Shown here piece by piece: positions 1 through 37,814 of a stretch of DNA of 64,000 nucleotides. The stretch's first letter is position 1. Every line of letters starts with the position of its first letter. A program made the position numbers and the translations under genes. The notes under the pieces are model-generated. The model searched no databases. It worked only from the letters and a program-made list of their open reading frames with translations, and was not told the origin of the DNA. The DNA comes from Patescibacteria group bacterium (GTDB lineage: Bacteria; Patescibacteriota; Minisyncoccia; Phycocordibacterales; JAACPR01), in NCBI GenBank assembly GCA_022711495.1, contig JAKLEX010000001.1, positions 87,058-151,057 of the forward strand. Direction: 5' to 3'.

Positions 1-811
1 AGTTAGCGACATCACCGAACGGTCGGTTCGCGACTTTCGCCTTTGGCTTAACCGACAAAACGCCACTAAAAATATTAACGGCCGTCTGACCGCCGGCACA
101 ATCAAGAAACGGACGCAGAATTATTACCTGATTGCTTTGCGTTCTTTCTTAAAGTTTCTTCTTAAAAAAGGATATAAGGTTCTGGCGCCCGATCAAATTG
201 AGTTAGCTAAAGTTCCCGAGCGGTCAATTGATTTGATTACTGCCGAAGAACTTAGACGAATCATGGACGGCCCAAGGGGTTCCGATGTAAAGAATCTGCG
301 CGACAAGGCTGTTCTAGAGTTGCTATTTTCAACTGGTTTGCGAGTTTCAGAATTATGCGCCCTGGACAGGGATCTTGATTTAAGCCGCGGCGAATTTGCT
401 ATCCGTGGGAAAGGCGAAAAAGTTCGAGTTGTTTTTATTTCCGAATCAGCCAAGAAAGCGCTGAACGAATATCTGGAAAAGCGCGACGACATGGATGAGG
501 CCATGTTTGTTCAAGTCGCCGGCAAGGGCGGTAAAGATTTGTTAAAAAAGCGTGAATCAATTCGATTGACCCCCCGTTCGGTTGAGAGGATTGTTCGATT
601 TTACGCCACTAAGGCCGGTATCTCTAAAAAAGTTACTCCGCACATCATCCGGCATTCTTTCGCCACTGATTTATTGTCAAACGGCGCTGATTTGCGCTCG
701 GTACAAGCTCTTCTCGGCCACGCCAACATTACAACGACACAGGTTTACACGCACGTTACGGACAGGCACCTAAAAGAAATTCATAAAAAATTTCACGACA
801 AGAACTCTTAG
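1..811 (+). CDS. Site-specific tyrosine recombinase, XerC/XerD family; the N-terminus runs past the window start (the frame is open from nt 2)
   Basis: C-terminal catalytic motifs HIIRHSFATDLL...LLGHANITTTQVYTHV; the frame stays open upstream of the listed Met to the window edge. Confidence 0.8.
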   Translation, partial: VSDITERSVRDFRLWLNRQNATKNINGRLTAGTIKKRTQNYYLIALRSFLKFLLKKGYKVLAPDQIELAKVPERSIDLITAEELRRIMDGPRGSDVKNLRDKAVLELLFSTGLRVSELCALDRDLDLSRGEFAIRGKGEKVRVVFISESAKKALNEYLEKRDDMDEAMFVQVAGKGGKDLLKKRESIRLTPRSVERIVRFYATKAGISKKVTPHIIRHSFATDLLSNGADLRSVQALLGHANITTTQVYTHVTDRHLKEIHKKFHDKNS

Positions 812-28525: not shown

Positions 28526-31105
28526 ATGAATCTTAGAAAAATCTTGTCGTTAGTTTTTGTGCTGACGATGTTGCCGATGGCCGCCAGAGCGGACGATATG
28601 TCCGGCAGTCTAGAACTGACCGATTGTTTCTCCGACGGTCTATACAGATTTCAGAGCGTCCAAGTTAGCGCCGGACCAGAGAAAGCCGTCTATAATCCCG
28701 GCGAGTCCATAGAATTTGTTGGTAGCGTTATAAACGAAAATTTATACCCCGTTGTTGACGGTAATGTTTTTGTCAGAATAAGTAAGGTCAATGCCAATTC
28801 CGCGACAGTAGACACGGTTTGGCATGACGTCGTTGATGAGTTCATGGCGGTTTCTGACATCTCAATCAGCGATGCAGCAAGCCAACCAATCTCTTTCTCT
28901 TGGCAGGCGCCCGGCACAATTGGGGCGGGTGATTACCGAGCCGATTTCTTTTTCTCCGTTGATAAAAGATTTAACCTTGGAGGACTTCCTTTTACGAATG
29001 AGATCGTAATAGGAACATCTTATTTTGAAATTGCCGGCTCATCGGTCAGGCCGTTTGTCTTGGATAGAAATAGTACCAAGGTAAATGACCAAACATATCT
29101 ACATATTGGAGAGTGGCCAGATGTACCGGCTGATTCCGCGGTAGAAATTAGTCAGCCCCTAAAAAACTTGTCTAACAAAGAAATCTCTCTTGATGTTACT
29201 TATGATTTATATTATTGGGACTCTTTGAGAGATTCTGACAAATTAGATTCTCGTTCCGAAAAAGTTGTCGTTCCGGCAAATGGATCGGTTAATTTGTCGT
29301 ACACCATAGAAAAGGTCTCCGAGCCGGTGTACTATCTGAGAATTAAAGCGACAAATGCTGGACTCTCATCTATCGTTAACGTCAGAGTTGTCTCATCGCT
29401 TGTCGCCAAGTCCAGGATCAATTATCCCGCTCTCAATGTCTTTCCTCTCATAAAAGACCAAGAAGCTACGGCCTTCTCTTGCTTTCACATGACTTCATAT
29501 GCGACAGACACTGGCCGCATAGTTTTGACGGTTAGTGACGAGAACGATCGCGTTTTTTCTTCCGGAGAATACGCGGGAGAAATCAGTAGCCAAATGGACG
29601 CGGTTGCCATGAATTTCTCGCCAAACAAAAATATAAGCTTTGCGAAATTAAAAGCTGAGCTGTTTGATTCAAGCGGCAAGCTTGTTGATCAGTACGAAGC
29701 CGTTTATGATTGCGAAGAAATCGGTAGTGAAAGTTGCCGACAACTTGACCAAGAAACGGCGACAGCGGCCTTTAATTATCTGGAACTGATCTATGTTGTT
29801 CTGATAGTTTTGGTGCTTGTCTTGATATTTGTCCGCATAAGAAAAATCGACGCGAACTCTTGGTCAAGAAAGGCCTTATCTATTATCGCGATTATCTTGG
29901 TTCTAATTCTGGCTTATATTGTTGTAAGAGCGGTCGCGCTCAAAAGTGGCATATCAAGCGCCACGGCGGAAGTTGTCTCTGGCGATGGCCGAACAAAAAC
30001 CGAGACGAAGTCTACTCCTTATAAAGAAAAAGCCTTTACGGGAAACAGGTTGGTTGTTTACGGAAACTTAAATCTTACGCACACCGTGACACTGACCGGA
30101 GGCGATAGCCGAGACGACGGCGGCTTTGATTTGGACGATGGCGACTCCGTTGGAATAAATTGGAACCGAGGATGTAGTTTTACGGCAACTGGCGGCGCAT
30201 GGGATACGCCAGTCTGCGGATCTTCACAGACATTTCATTCCGGCGACCGGGGTCATGATGGTTGGATTAAATTCCTTAACGAATCACAGACAGCAACGAT
30301 AGTGTCCAGCAATCCGGAGGTCGTGTCATGTAGCGGCTCTAGTCCAAATTGGACGTGTACCGGTTTGGAGTCTGGTTATGCCGATATCAGTGTCCATATA
30401 GACCAAGATCTCTTCTATCCGGAAATGTGTGTTGAGTGGACGGCGCAAAATGGCACGGCGTGTGTCGAATGCACCTCTAATATTCAAGGTAAATATGAGA
30501 CGTGTAATGATCGTGGTTTGAATTTGACGGTTACAACTCCAAGCTATAATCCAACATGGCGTATATATGTTGGTAGTTCAGACGCATGCGGTCCGGCCGC
30601 CGGCGAGACTCTCTCTGATTCTGACTGGCCGCTAGATGAAGAAGATGCGTGTGCTTATGGCGAAATGGAAAATCCGGGCGATGATGGTGATACTTATTCT
30701 TGGAAATGCGGAGACGTTTCATGTTCGGCCAATAAAGATGATGGTGACGACGATGATCCAGAAGAACCTCCTTACGAACCGCATCATTTGTTATTAATCC
30801 CTGACGACGCGTCAGCCATATCGCCAAATATTGTTAACCCGGGCGAACAGTGTACTGTCAGTTGGGAAGTAGATAGTAGCCAAAACGGGTCCTGCACGAT
30901 TATAAATATCGCAGACCAAGTAGTCGGAAGCGCGTTTGACTATACTGCCGGCGGAGAAAATTCTTTTGAAGCGTTGGTGGATCCTCAAAATGAATATAGA
31001 ATCGTCTGCACCGACAGCGCACCAGCCGAGCCGGGAGGGGAACCGGAATCCGTTACTAGTACCGTTCTGCGCTGTATTTTGAATCCGAACGTTGTTGAGC
31101 AGTAA
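28526..31105 (+). CDS. Large predicted cell-surface protein (859 aa): signal peptide, N-terminal beta-rich domain, central two-helix TM hairpin, and a Cys/Asp-rich C-terminal domain
   Basis: Signal peptide MNLRKILSLVFVLTMLPMAARA; TM1 LELIYVVLIVLVLVLIFVRI and TM2 IIAIILVLILAYIVVRAVAL about 15 aa apart; C-terminal half has over 25 Cys, an acidic run DDGDDDDPEEP, and no recognisable enzyme motifs. Confidence 0.5.
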   Translation: MNLRKILSLVFVLTMLPMAARADDMSGSLELTDCFSDGLYRFQSVQVSAGPEKAVYNPGESIEFVGSVINENLYPVVDGNVFVRISKVNANSATVDTVWHDVVDEFMAVSDISISDAASQPISFSWQAPGTIGAGDYRADFFFSVDKRFNLGGLPFTNEIVIGTSYFEIAGSSVRPFVLDRNSTKVNDQTYLHIGEWPDVPADSAVEISQPLKNLSNKEISLDVTYDLYYWDSLRDSDKLDSRSEKVVVPANGSVNLSYTIEKVSEPVYYLRIKATNAGLSSIVNVRVVSSLVAKSRINYPALNVFPLIKDQEATAFSCFHMTSYATDTGRIVLTVSDENDRVFSSGEYAGEISSQMDAVAMNFSPNKNISFAKLKAELFDSSGKLVDQYEAVYDCEEIGSESCRQLDQETATAAFNYLELIYVVLIVLVLVLIFVRIRKIDANSWSRKALSIIAIILVLILAYIVVRAVALKSGISSATAEVVSGDGRTKTETKSTPYKEKAFTGNRLVVYGNLNLTHTVTLTGGDSRDDGGFDLDDGDSVGINWNRGCSFTATGGAWDTPVCGSSQTFHSGDRGHDGWIKFLNESQTATIVSSNPEVVSCSGSSPNWTCTGLESGYADISVHIDQDLFYPEMCVEWTAQNGTACVECTSNIQGKYETCNDRGLNLTVTTPSYNPTWRIYVGSSDACGPAAGETLSDSDWPLDEEDACAYGEMENPGDDGDTYSWKCGDVSCSANKDDGDDDDPEEPPYEPHHLLLIPDDASAISPNIVNPGEQCTVSWEVDSSQNGSCTIINIADQVVGSAFDYTAGGENSFEALVDPQNEYRIVCTDSAPAEPGGEPESVTSTVLRCILNPNVVEQ

Positions 31106-31901: not shown

Positions 31902-32312
31902 ATGTCAGAAGAACAAAAAACAAGTACCGAAGAAGTCGTCGTTCCAGAGAAGTTCAAGAAGATTGTTGAATCTATTGAGACGATGAGCGTTCTGGATCTG
32001 AATGAACTGGTCAAGTTGCTTGAAAAGAAATTCGGAGTTAGTGCTGTGGCCGTGGCCGCTCCAGCCGCCGCTGGTGCCGCTGGTGCCGCTGAAGAAGAAA
32101 AATCCGAATTTACCGTTCACATAAAAGAAGCCGGTGCGCAAAAAATCGCCGTCATTAAAGTCGTAAAAGAAGCCGCTGGTCTTGGTCTGAAAGAGGCCAA
32201 AGATCTAGTAGAGGCCGCTCCAGCCGATGTCAAAACCGGTCTGAAGAAAGCCGACGCCGAAGACTTGAAGAAGAAACTTGAAGAAGCTGGTGCTAAGGTG
32301 GAGCTTAAATAA
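31902..32312 (+). CDS. rplL: 50S ribosomal protein L7/L12
   Basis: N-terminal dimerisation domain, Ala/Gly hinge [17 protein letters not shown]-terminal domain [24 protein letters not shown]. Confidence 0.9.
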
Positions 32313-32338
32313 GACTAAACAAAAACTCCAGAGCTTTA

Positions 32339-32407
32339 TTCGATCCAGTCCTCGTTTCCTTTCTCTGTCAATTTTCATTTGACAGAGAAAGACTGCGGGG
32401 GACCTCA
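32339..32407. repeat. Left copy of a ~68-nt inverted-repeat pair flanking tuf; contains an internal perfect 13-bp hairpin
   Basis: TTCGATCCAGTCCTCGTTTCCTTTCTCTGTCAATTTTCATTTGACAGAGAAAGACTGCGGGGGACCTC; its reverse complement matches 33950-34018 at about 90% identity. Confidence 0.8.
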
Positions 32408-32543
32408 AAAGCTCCGGAGTTTTTGTGTTTAGGTGAGGCTGCGCAAAGTCGACCGAGAGTAACGGCCCTGCTCGCTGGAGGGAGGAACGCGCGTCTCTAG
32501 GAAGTGTTTCTGGGGGTTCTATGTTTGTTTAGTCTTAACCCAT

Positions 32544-32573
32544 TGACACACTTTCTCGTTTTGTTACTATAAT
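32544..32573 (+). promoter_or_regulatory. Near-consensus sigma70-like promoter for tuf
   Basis: TTGACA-18 nt-TATAAT located about 125 nt upstream of the tuf ATG, inside the inverted-repeat-bounded segment. Confidence 0.5.
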
Positions 32574-32700
32574 TCTTACACAAAAGGGGCGCTTTTTGTT
32601 TGCGCCGCATATTGTGGGGACTATTTTTTACAAGACCGCTCTCGCGCTTTTGTAAGAGATAATCTTTTTATTAGGAGGTATTAATTACAAATAAATTATT

Positions 32701-33891
32701 ATGGCAGATTTTAATCGAACAAAGCCGCACGTTAACGTCGGCACCATCGGTCACGTTGACCATGGTAAAACGACTTTGACTTCTGGTATTTTGCACGTCT
32801 TGAAAATGGCGGGTAAAAATGCCACGGAGAAATCGGTTGACGATATTGACAAGTCGCCGGAAGAAAAAGCCCGAGGTATTACCATTTCCATTTCACACAT
32901 GGAATATGAGACGGACGCGCGCCACTATGCGCACGTTGACTGTCCTGGGCACGCCGACTTCATTAAGAACATGATTACTGGTGCCGCTCAAATGGACGGC
33001 GCTATTCTTGTGGTCGCTGCGCCGGACGGCGTGATGCCACAGACGAGAGAACACGTTCTCTTGGCTCGCCAAGTGGGTGTTCCAAAAATTATTGTCTTCT
33101 TGAACAAGGTTGATCTTGTTGATGATAAAGAGTTGGTTGATCTAGTTGAGGAAGAAGTTCGTGAATTACTTGAGAAGAATGGTTTTGACGGAAAGAATAC
33201 TCCGGTTATCCGGGGTTCTGGTCTAAAAGCCATCGAGGCTCAATCAATGGATGATTCTTATGCTAAAAGCATTATGGAATTAATGAATGCTTTGGATAGT
33301 TACATTCCTATTCCGGTCCGAGATCTTGATAAGCCTTTCTTGATGCCGGTTGAAGACATTTTCTCAATTGAAGGACGAGGAACTGTCGCTACTGGTCGTA
33401 TTGAAAGAGGAAAAGTCAAAATCGGACAGGAAGTTGAAATCGTCGGCATTAAGCCAACGCAAAAGACAACTGTCACTGGTATTGAAATGTTTAACAAGTC
33501 TTTGCAAGAAGGTCTTGCTGGAGACAATGCCGGAATTCTTCTTCGTGGATTGAAGAAAGAAGATGTCCACAGAGGACAAGTTTTGGCCGCTACTGGTTCA
33601 GTGACTCCTCACACGGAATTTACAGCAGAAGTGTATGTCTTGAAAAAAGAGGAAGGTGGACGACACACACCATTCTTTACTGGTTACAAGCCACAATTCT
33701 ACATCCGAACGACTGATGTGACGGGAGACGTCACTTTGGCTGCGGGTGTTGAAATGGTTATGCCTGGAGACACGGCGACCTTCACGGTTAAATTGGTTGC
33801 TCCAGTGGCCCTTGAAGATAAGCAGAGATTTGCCATTCGCGAGGGTGGTAAAACTGTCGGCGCCGGTGCGGTAACGAAGATTATCGCCTAG
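32701..33891 (+). CDS. tuf: Elongation factor Tu
   Basis: [34 protein letters not shown]; 396 aa. Confidence 0.95.
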
Positions 33892-33949
33892 CCGATTAAG
33901 CTCTTTTCAAAGATAGGTTATTCCGTTTAGTTCGCAACAATTAGTTTTT

Positions 33950-34018
33950 GAGATCCCCCCGCAGTCTTTTTCTGTCAAATGAAAATTGACAGAAAAAGGA
34001 GACGAGGATTGGATCGAA
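33950..34018. repeat. Right copy of the inverted-repeat pair flanking tuf
   Basis: GAGATCCCCCCGCAGTCTTTTTCTGTCAAATGAAAATTGACAGAAAAAGGAGACGAGGATTGGATCGAA; same internal hairpin TCTGTCAA-(7 nt)-TTGACAGA. Confidence 0.8.
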
Positions 34019-34081
34019 AAAACTGAATTGTGGAGAACTAAACGGAACCACTAGCTTTTGGAGAGATAATCAACTTCAAAT

Positions 34082-34423
34082 ATGGTTACCAAGAAGGCAA
34101 AACAAACAGAGGTAAGTAACGCTCGCCTTAGAATACGGGTCCGAGCTTACGAAAGTAAAATTCTTGATGCGTCGATAAGACAAATTGTCGACACGGCTTT
34201 ACGATTTGGCGCCACAGTGTCTGGGCCAATTCCATTGCCGACCGAGATCAAGAAATATACCGTCAACAGATCAGCGTTCGTCTACAAGGATGCGCGAGAG
34301 CAATTTGAGATGAGGGTCCACAAACGTCTAGTTGACATTCTAAATCCTGATGCTAAGCTAATCGAAGCTTTAACGAATTTGAGCTTACCGTCGGGCGTGA
34401 ACATTGATGTAAAAATGATTTAA
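34082..34423 (+). CDS. rpsJ: 30S ribosomal protein S10
   Basis: LRIRVRAYESKILD...GPIPLPTEIKKYTVNRSAFVYKDAREQFEMRVHKRLVDI. Confidence 0.9.
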   Translation: MVTKKAKQTEVSNARLRIRVRAYESKILDASIRQIVDTALRFGATVSGPIPLPTEIKKYTVNRSAFVYKDAREQFEMRVHKRLVDILNPDAKLIEALTNLSLPSGVNIDVKMI

Positions 34424-37202: not shown

Positions 37203-37469
37203 TCAGTTGGGAAGGCGCGAGTCGATCATTTCGCGGAATTCGTCCCTGACTGCTTCCGCTCGCGCGAGCTTAAGCTCGAGCTCCTTGATCCTGTTGTTGG
37301 CACTGACCAACATGATCTTGGAATCACGGCCCCCTTCGCGTTCCGTGGACAAATCCTCCCGCAAAATGGCGAAGGACTGGTCTTGCTTTTTCAACTCTTC
37401 CTCGAGCCGCGCGTTCTTGGCCAACAGCTCTCGTATCCGTGCCTTATCCGATTTTTTCTTCTGTGCCAT
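37203..37469 (-). CDS. Hypothetical coiled-coil protein (about 88 aa from the MAQKKK start) encoded antisense between rplB and rpsS; GC-rich
   Basis: Strong SD (GGAGAG within AAGGAAGGTGGAGAG) 4-10 nt upstream of ATG GCA CAG; heptad-like RIRELLAKNARLEEELKKQD...IKELELKLARAEAVRDEFREMI; own downstream terminator; the ORF-track start at 37556 is probably an overextension. Confidence 0.45.
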   Translation of the reverse strand: MAQKKKSDKARIRELLAKNARLEEELKKQDQSFAILREDLSTEREGGRDSKIMLVSANNRIKELELKLARAEAVRDEFREMIDSRLPN

Positions 37470-37679
37470 CTCTCCACCTTCCTTCCTGTGTTTAATGTGC
37501 ACTTCGCTCTCGTGGCGAATTATTGGTGATGATATCACGCCTTTAAAATATGTCAATGTTTTGGTGATTTATACAATCTCCCCCGACATTGTTTTTACCA
37601 GATTAAATTCGCTACCGCGGCCTTTTCTTTATCTAATCTTTATCTAAATTTTCGTCGAACCAAACCCGCCTTTTAATCC

Positions 37680-37707
37680 TTGACTATTTTCTGTGCTTTG
37701 CTAGTAT
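37680..37707 (+). promoter_or_regulatory. Sigma70-like promoter that would restart transcription for rpsS and the downstream S10/spc genes
   Basis: TTGACT-16 nt-TAGTAT about 110 nt upstream of rpsS; preceded by the tandem direct repeat CTTTATCTAAT / CTTTATCTAAA. Confidence 0.4.
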
Positions 37708-37814
37708 GTTGCTTACTGCAAATTGATGTGTTTTTGAGGAGAAAGACACTGAACGCTTGAGGCGATGATAGTCTCACGGCCAATTTGGTGGATTTTGCGG
37801 TCGTCTTAATTTTT

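Follow-up and report, generated by a model that had tools for sequence, protein, structure and literature searches.

Among the extragenic palindromic repeats described in bacteria are the REP/BIME and REPIN elements of Proteobacteria, which are mobilised by REP-associated tyrosine (RAYT) Y1 transposases, and the Correia/NEMIS elements of Neisseria and ERIC elements of enterobacteria, whose transcripts form long hairpins acting as terminators or as targets of RNase III or RNase E. On RNA, REP, ERIC and Correia elements serve as terminators, 3'-end protecting structures or RNase III substrates. Hairpins are also landing sites for mobile DNA: IS1397 and ISKpn1 enter the loops of REP palindromic units, and terminator hairpins are the targets of class C group II introns. 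Genomes of the Candidate Phyla Radiation (CPR, or Patescibacteria) are very small, and repeats and mobile DNA are usually considered scarce in them. Here we describe a palindromic repeat in a 64,000-nt stretch of DNA (the window; contig JAKLEX010000001.1, positions 87,058 to 151,057) from a Candidatus Paceibacterota (Parcubacteria, CPR) genome, where two inverted copies bracket tuf, the gene for EF-Tu. On balance, these two repeats are probably members of a dispersed family of ∼80–95-nt imperfect palindromes in Paceibacteria genomes, and their bracketing of tuf looks incidental rather than like a processing device. An earlier, sequence-only reading of the locus had offered three explanations: RNase III excision of tuf, a cassette bounded by elements resembling REP or miniature inverted-repeat transposable elements (MITEs), and paired protein-binding operators. 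Its interpretation is partly supported, in that the excision reading found no support and the MITE/REP kind was borne out.

The inverted repeat around tuf is real and statistically unambiguous (Table 1). A repeat search of the window returned two arms of 67 nt that are 93% complementary and lie 1554 nt apart, by far the longest inverted repeat present, and the central 21-nt sequence occurs exactly twice in the window against zero expected from 100 shuffles. When one indel is allowed, the similarity between copies 1 and 2 extends over ∼76 nt, from TTTWTTCGATCC to CTCAAAA. Each copy contains a perfect 13-bp stem closed by a 7-nt loop (CTTTCTCTGTCAA/TTGACAGAGAAAG in copy 1 and CTTTTTCTGTCAA/TTGACAGAAAAAG in copy 2), the two stems differing only by a compensatory C:G to T:A pair. 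The sequence-only reading had described a ∼68-nt inverted pair, a perfect 13-bp stem with a 7-nt loop in both copies and a complete tuf ORF (open reading frame) between them, all of which hold. Its coordinates (32339-32407 and 33950-34018) are off by 4–6 nt, its quoted stem sequence fits copy 1 only, and its figure of ∼90% identity is replaced by the 93% found on exact comparison, which lies above the ∼80% under which that reading expected its pairing model to weaken.

Each copy caps a longer local hairpin, and the two hairpins have no outer stem in common, a feature that the sequence-only reading missed. The outer stem of copy 1 begins at the rplL stop codon and is followed downstream by TTTTTGTGTTT, which gives the arrangement of an intrinsic terminator (a stable stem-loop, then a T-run, following a gene) 17 nt after the rplL stop; judged by its sequence, the copy 1 hairpin looks like the rplL terminator. 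The host stem of copy 2 (−74.9 kcal/mol, fold z −9.5) has no T-run.

Further copies of the unit beyond the tuf locus, whose existence the sequence-only reading had left to be checked, were found by a degenerate pattern scan of species-representative genomes and by a covariance model (R1) built on 16 copies, searches with which yielded additional ones. Among the pattern-scan matches listed (at least 60 stretches), at least eight fell in the DAOLDC01 metagenome-assembled genome (MAG), at least seven in CALLZK01, at least four in JAACPR01 and at least three in CAZRAX01; other matches were due to chance or to a conserved Janthinobacterium/Massilia coding segment. Some Paceibacteria MAGs carry at least 9–10 copies each, so that numbers are in the tens rather than the hundreds per genome, and several true copies lie at contig ends, as expected of a repeat that breaks assemblies. 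A third copy in the window's own genome lies ∼5.8 kb past the window's 3' end, directly after smpB (L096:4197-4292, plus strand), and the CALLZK genome also has a degenerate copy after smpB (L027:442-529). A scan of metagenome contigs added another subfamily; the same collection gave no match to the window-type loop pattern although the source contigs come from JGI, which shows it to be a sample only. Viral contigs gave no match to the repeat family.

All 37 copies examined are intergenic and start 15–60 nt past a stop codon, and none is adjacent to a mobile-element gene. The upstream genes are housekeeping genes, including rplL, tuf, rplB, rpsG, rplK, secY, ftsZ, mreB, smpB and genes for aminoacyl-tRNA synthetases. 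With respect to the upstream gene, 21 copies are sense, 6 antisense and 4 convergent, although orthologous sites among them make these counts non-independent. Of seven recurrent sites, three (those of secY, a KH-protein gene and tuf-rpsJ) are occupied in different orientations in different lineages.

The copies share a common anatomy. Outermost is P1, a palindrome of 10–25 bp that is unique to each locus and usually has an A-run before it and a T-run after it; termination is predicted from sequence for most members on these grounds. For comparison, element-free terminators across these genomes are perfect palindromes of 11–22 bp (A and T runs counted in), and conventional terminators in the window have 7–9-bp G+C-rich stems. 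Inside P1 lies a small asymmetric internal loop with YTTTTNTTC opposite TCAAAAG, and it is here, just outside P2, that copy-to-copy similarity stops. P2 is a 5-bp stem whose sequence differs between copies while its pairing is kept, followed by a 2–3-nt bulge. Next, TCCTCG faces CTGCGG, both invariant, in an imperfect helix, and a small internal loop leads to P3, a terminal hairpin with a stem of ∼13 bp (up to ∼16 bp in subfamilies B and C) and a loop of 7 to 13 nt, which is variable or absent. P2 occurs in 14 distinct sequences, with 93.5% of positions paired against 79% when partners were shuffled (maximum 86% in 500 shuffles). Over the 16-copy alignment 86.5% of cells are paired, and 35 cells are changed on both sides compared to 14.2 ± 2.8 in shuffles.

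Variation at the tip is considerable. A short variant in one relative (L009:10303-10363), at a post-rplB site where two others (L010 and L012) have full copies, carries a 9-nt loop in place of P3; the third copy in the window's genome combines a 13-bp perfect P1 with an unrelated P3; and in a nested pair (L069:16-238) a complete inner copy takes the place of P3 in a degenerate outer copy. Since TCCTCG, GTCAA, TTGAC and CTGCGG had to be present for a match in the collection scans, the invariance of the two facing motifs is tested by the model-found copies only; both are kept in the short variant, the post-smpB copy of the window's genome and the inner copy of the nested pair.

Several other identities were considered for the unit and set aside. 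A tRNA-like reading of TTCGATCC failed, as ARAGORN found nothing and the flanks are unable to form a T-stem. The resemblance to a hairpin ribozyme (AGUCCU in the 5' strand) is not matched by an AGAA loop in the opposite strand, a loop-B domain or a hit to the Rfam Hairpin family. The likeness of CTGCGG-NN-GGATC to the 3' end of 16S rRNA is a coincidence, since it depends on P2, which varies between copies. A Shine-Dalgarno/anti-Shine-Dalgarno pairing of GGAGGA with UCCUC is conserved neither in the window copies nor in subfamily C, and no small ORF with a conserved start or stop runs across the element. More generally, a gathering-threshold scan of the whole window against Rfam 15 (small ribozymes included) and E-value scans (E up to 10) of the locus and four related loci assigned the element to no family, returning only tRNAs and microRNA-precursor hairpins; the latter are generic long-hairpin models that scored far under their thresholds and are considered spurious.

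Seven same-species contigs from different metagenomes are base-identical over the tuf locus, and no inverted isoform occurs among them. The window's EF-Tu 90% cluster holds its own species only and offers no closer relative for a comparison of filled and empty sites. The four nearest other species (L008, L009, L010 and L012) have an EF-Tu that is 87–88% identical to the window's, and the tuf tree places the window on one side and ((L008, L009), (L010, L012)) on the other. The sequence-only reading had proposed a check of synteny in relatives: the gene order rplJ-rplL-tuf-rpsJ is common to all four, and the repeats are wholly absent only from L008. L009 and L012 each have a single copy, after rplL, while L010 has none there and a single copy between tuf and rpsJ, on the plus strand and so opposite to the window's orientation at that site (the window itself having a plus-strand copy after rplL and a minus-strand copy between tuf and rpsJ). 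The tuf bracket is not conserved, because relatives with the same gene order never have both copies (0 of 4). As the tuf-rpsJ site is filled in the window and L010 only among the five genomes, and in different orientations, the sequence comparison indicates that copy 2 is a lineage-specific gain.

The sites themselves record how copies come and go. After rplL, the terminator of a relative is either plain or carries the element, and the empty rplL terminator of L010 retains a 12-nt remnant of the element's 5' end (ACTTTTATTCGG), which fits loss through deletion between TTCGG microhomologies. Likewise, the post-rplB site has a conventional terminator in L008 and an element-bearing hairpin in L009. 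The stem in the tuf-rpsJ spacer is conserved; empty sites (L008, L009 and L012) have an apical hairpin of 14–20 nt, whereas filled sites have 26–30-nt arms plus the element, the window having 26-nt arms and copy 2.

Several observations bear on whether the unit is maintained as DNA or as RNA. Outside the core, the arms contain 40 A·C and 27 G·T mismatches, so that A·C is no rarer than G·T and there is no G·U excess, which favours maintenance at the DNA level, as selection on one RNA strand predicts the opposite. Orthologous P1 stems of L010 and L012 differ by symmetric 3-bp indels and paired substitutions, a pattern that fits templated correction between arms. Lastly, TTGACC is found in all 9 distinct copies of the L012/DAOLDC species and TTGACT in all 8 intact A-type copies of L010/CALLZK, a split that holds even at the orthologous post-rplB pair; cores that are alike within a genome and different between sister species point to concerted evolution. 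Taken together, homogenised cores, orientation flips and the lack of a G·U excess favour a DNA-level repeat resembling REP or MITE elements, as far as sequence comparison can tell.

The MITE- or REP-like alternative of the sequence-only reading was right as to kind (a dispersed palindromic repeat), while the features that define a classical MITE or a REP/RAYT system were not found. Like REP/BIME and REPIN elements, the copies are short, multi-copy, extragenic imperfect palindromes just after genes, in transcribed 3' regions and in either orientation, with sequences specific to a genome or species and a structure kept by compensatory change; by analogy, the hairpins of the window copies might terminate transcription or stabilise mRNA. 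They differ in lacking the GTAG-type 5' tetranucleotide of REP, in unit length (80–95 nt versus 20–40 nt), in copy number (tens versus hundreds per genome), and in that the shared unit lies at the apex of a locus-specific palindrome and is not the palindrome itself. No RAYT (Y1 HUH transposase) gene is adjacent to any of the 37 copies or was seen in ∼300 kb of flanking sequence. Correia/NEMIS and ERIC elements (about 100–150 nt) are similarly palindromic repeats in intergenic, co-transcribed regions and are, by analogy, probably the nearest match to the family's action on RNA. Theirs, however, are conserved terminal inverted repeats with TA target duplications, whereas the host junction here is a non-conserved inverted repeat. 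Two MITE hallmarks are thus absent: flanks are inverted rather than direct at every copy, giving no direct target-site duplication, and terminal inverted repeats are not conserved. No related insertion sequence was found in the examined loci or in viral contigs.

Other systems offer partial likenesses. Mobile DNA that recognises hairpins or palindromes instead of a sequence, and lands at or next to the apex, is already known from IS1397/ISKpn1 and class C group II introns, but these are autonomous, with a transposase or reverse transcriptase, while the present unit is non-coding. Integron attC sites resemble the family in being folded-hairpin sites at gene 3' ends with conserved short boxes, extrahelical or irregular positions and variable terminal structure, and in their high similarity within a genome and differences between species. 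In contrast, inspection of the alignment by eye (no motif search was run) showed no RYYYAAC/GTTRRRY boxes, and family members are scattered across many contigs, behind housekeeping genes and in both orientations, instead of forming a co-oriented array beside intI. No description of such an element in CPR bacteria was found in the literature. We therefore regard this palindromic repeat family as previously undescribed, and within extragenic palindromic repeats as new in its apex position, invariant internal helix, variable or nested tip, and within-genome homogenisation.

We propose that the unit is kept and spread at the DNA level. New copies would arise at the apex of hairpins already present at gene ends, gene conversion or mutual copying would keep the cores of a genome alike, the core could flip orientation via the flanking inverted arms, and copies would be lost through microhomology deletion. 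Once transcribed, a copy would extend the gene-end hairpin to about 45–60 bp, and its role would go no further than terminating transcription, protecting the 3' end or serving RNase III as a local substrate. At the tuf locus, copy 1 would be an old resident of the rplL terminator, and copy 2 would have been gained in the window lineage, copied from a copy 1-like sequence into the apical hairpin of the tuf-rpsJ spacer; with copy 1 old and copy 2 a lineage-specific gain, the bracketing of tuf would be incidental. We infer both the mechanism of spread and the function of the family. Mobility in particular is deduced from where copies have been gained and lost across lineages and from the near-identity of copies at sites that are not orthologous. 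It is possible, though we would not expect it, that the TCCTCG/CTGCGG helix, together with the covarying stems that close it and its variable tip, is the recognition module of a Paceibacteria protein that copies the module into hairpin apices or, alternatively, reads it as an end signal of highly expressed operons. Apex-copying, if true, would amount to a new mode of mobility, one aimed at hairpin apices and having neither terminal repeats nor target duplications; an operon-end signal, if true, would go back to a deep Paceibacteria ancestor and have survived in genomes that are otherwise streamlined.

A number of observations sit uneasily with a repeat spread as DNA. The ∼300 kb of flanking sequence yielded no transposase, no target-site duplication and no autonomous version of the unit, and the loci examined contain no split half-sites around an ORF, as an autonomous element with split halves would have. 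The arms of 26–30 nt at filled tuf-rpsJ sites, compared to 7–8 bp at empty ones, are more than simple insertion into a loop can explain. The sense bias, the occupation of the same gene ends in distant lineages (rplL and rplB in three each; rpsG, secY, smpB and the KH-protein gene in two each) and the persistence of TCCTCG/CTGCGG across subfamilies in which all other positions have changed weigh in the same direction. The invariance of these motifs is itself subject to the ascertainment bias of the scans, and the decayed copies (L027:442 and the outer copy of L069) deviate from them. Nevertheless, invariant motifs, repeated site occupancy and sense bias suggest selection on function, possibly at the RNA level.

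Such selection is the substance of a rival explanation in which the unit is a cis-acting structured RNA motif at operon ends, selected at the 3' ends of highly expressed genes, with the UCCUCG/CUGCGG helix bound or cleaved by a conserved factor (RNase III, RNase Y, some RNA-binding protein or the core of an unrecognised ribozyme). Functional RNAs are usually marked by nucleotides that are invariant yet unpaired or irregular, with covarying helices on either side and a terminal stem of variable length; copies follow the same genes in lineages whose tuf is 77–84% identical at the nucleotide level; the sense orientation is in excess, and on the sense strand positions 26/66 always form a G·U pair. 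A conserved motif embedded in terminator stems also has a precedent in the HMP-PP riboswitch (PMC6478431). Yet orientation flips at three of the seven recurrent sites, copy 2 runs antisense to tuf and rpsJ, G·U does not exceed A·C in the arms, some copies are nested, and cores are homogenised within each genome. The upstream and downstream genes are moreover functionally unrelated, and no Rfam ribozyme or motif matched even at E up to 10. We consider this explanation unlikely.

Explanations centred on tuf itself fare worse. Were the copies recombination sites or cassette boundaries, with the 13-7-13 P3 serving a tyrosine recombinase as a folded-hairpin or lox/dif-like site, tuf would be invertible or exchangeable. 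P3 does consist of 13-bp inverted arms on either side of an asymmetric 7-nt spacer, the window's 5' edge holds a Xer-like recombinase gene, DNA right after the rplL copy is hypervariable between relatives, and a second gene (a 209-aa ORF between rplB and rpsS) lies between inverted copies in L012 and is absent from its sister L010. However, P3 is dispensable or replaced in some copies, which tells against an attC, dif or lox reading of it, and its loop length varies; no attC R-box is visible by eye in the aligned, dispersed and unarrayed copies. The order and orientation of tuf are unchanged in relatives lacking one or both copies, and the seven independent contigs show no inverted isoform. 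These facts also speak against the cassette envisaged by the sequence-only reading, and we judge a recombination role very improbable. Paired protein-binding operators, another of its suggestions, found no support. For excision, that reading supposed that read-through from rplL to rpsJ pairs the copies into a long stem around tuf, which would measure 62–67 bp, and that RNase III frees the tuf mRNA from it, as in rRNA maturation. The predicted pairing is favoured at equilibrium, by about 17 kcal/mol (cofold −149.7 versus −132.3 kcal/mol for local hairpins), and in the minimum free energy structure of the 1786-nt transcript, 62 nt of copy 1 are bound to copy 2. But the long-range complementarity, which is conserved in rRNA-type stems, occurs in the window only among the five genomes, and the single tuf-rpsJ copy of L010 is in the non-complementary orientation. 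Each copy would fold locally while being transcribed, copy 1 belongs to a hairpin that resembles a terminator and is followed by a T-run, a conserved promoter precedes tuf itself, and the unit occurs singly after many unrelated genes, all of which makes excision hardly credible.

For the tuf locus, the outcome favouring a dispersed DNA-level repeat is deflationary, with no evidence of a dedicated excision or switching device. In practical terms, the family breaks assemblies, and pairs of copies can mimic meaningful gene-bracketing structures. More broadly, a conserved multi-copy palindrome in the terminators of core translation, secretion and division genes would provide a new handle on how transcripts are ended or processed in these organisms, and on how palindromic repeats originate, spread without an obvious transposase, and are homogenised within a genome.

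Table 1. Coordinates of the tuf locus, the two repeat copies and their parts in the window.
Feature	Position	Strand	Remarks
rplL	31902-32312		
Extended hairpin with copy 1 at apex	32312..32431	+	−57.4 kcal/mol, fold z −6.6
Outer stem (P1) of copy 1	32319-32337 / 32408-32426		19 nt, 95%, locus-specific
Copy 1 of repeat family	32329..32416	+	sense relative to rplL; covariance model R1 99 bits, E 3e-25
Inverted-repeat arms	32335-32401 / 33956-34022		found by repeat search of the window
Copy 1, outer parts			top of outer stem and internal loop; P2 GATCC 32342-32346 / GGACC 32400-32404; bulge AG
Copy 1, core			invariant TCCTCG 32349-32354; P3 hairpin (13-bp stem) 32359-32391; invariant CTGCGG 32393-32398
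tuf promoter and conserved 5' leader hairpin	32543..32700	+	TTGACA 32543-32548; TACTATAAT 32565-32573; outside the repeat
tuf (EF-Tu, 396 aa)	32701-33891	+	resident gene; same position in 4 of 4 relatives, with or without flanking copies
Host stem of tuf-rpsJ spacer, CTTTTCAAAGATAGGTTATTC...GAACCACTAGCTTTTGGAGAG	33894..34072	+	conserved in five genomes; copy 2 in apex
Outer stem of copy 2	33902-33949 / 34019-34066		
Copy 2 of repeat family	33940..34028	-	antisense to tuf and rpsJ; R1 90 bits, E 1.3e-22
Copy 2, parts		-	TCCTCG 34008-34003; CTGCGG 33964-33959; P3 hairpin (13-bp stem) 33966-33998; P2 GATCC/GGATC
rpsJ	34082-34423		

The spacers around tuf contain further conserved structures. The promoter described by the sequence-only reading as TTGACA-18-TATAAT is real, and its TTGACA is conserved in the four relatives, although TTGACA is separated by 16 nt from TACTAT or by 19 nt from TATAAT. 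The tuf 5' leader (32574-32700) has a 14–16-bp hairpin (TTTTTTACAAGACC...CTTTTGTAAGAGA) and a smaller one upstream; both are kept in the five genomes with 5 compensatory pairs and no Rfam match, and may represent an EF-Tu leader element. Past tuf, the long stem at 33894-33925 / 34043-34072 (CTTTTCNNAGATAGGTTATTC ... GAACCACTAGCTNNNGGAGAG) is present in all five genomes and could be a leader or processing structure of rpsJ (S10). The rplL-tuf spacer is hypervariable between relatives (273 to 1075 nt), with small minus-strand ORFs in some; in the window, the ∼110 nt between copy 1 and the tuf promoter (32427-32540) are G+C-rich, absent from relatives and without a match to any RNA family.

The local gene order is rpsL-rpsG-fusA-(859-aa ORF)-rplJ-rplL-tuf-rpsJ-rplC, and rpoB and rpoC are not located between rplL and rpsL in the window lineage. 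The 859-aa ORF (28526-31105) has no Pfam domain, and relatives have unannotated ORFs of 918–1222 aa in its place. At the window's 5' edge, positions 137-811 (plus strand) belong to a gene for a XerC/XerD-like tyrosine recombinase, which is cut by the edge so that only its C-terminal part is included; the gene adjoins rpsO in L097. The rplB-rpsS spacer carries lineage-specific insertions with unannotated ORFs, which in the window is an 88-aa ORF (37203-37469, minus strand) in a G+C-rich insert and in L012 the unrelated 209-aa ORF (L012:10601-11230) between two inverted repeat copies; Pfam and PHROGs searches of the small ORFs of the variable spacers, these two included, gave no match. Upstream of rpsS, the same spacer (∼37676-37800) has a conserved internal promoter (CCTTGACTATTT...TAGTATG) and a ∼100-nt leader with three hairpins in all five genomes, and it is here that the S10 operon is divided into separate transcription units.

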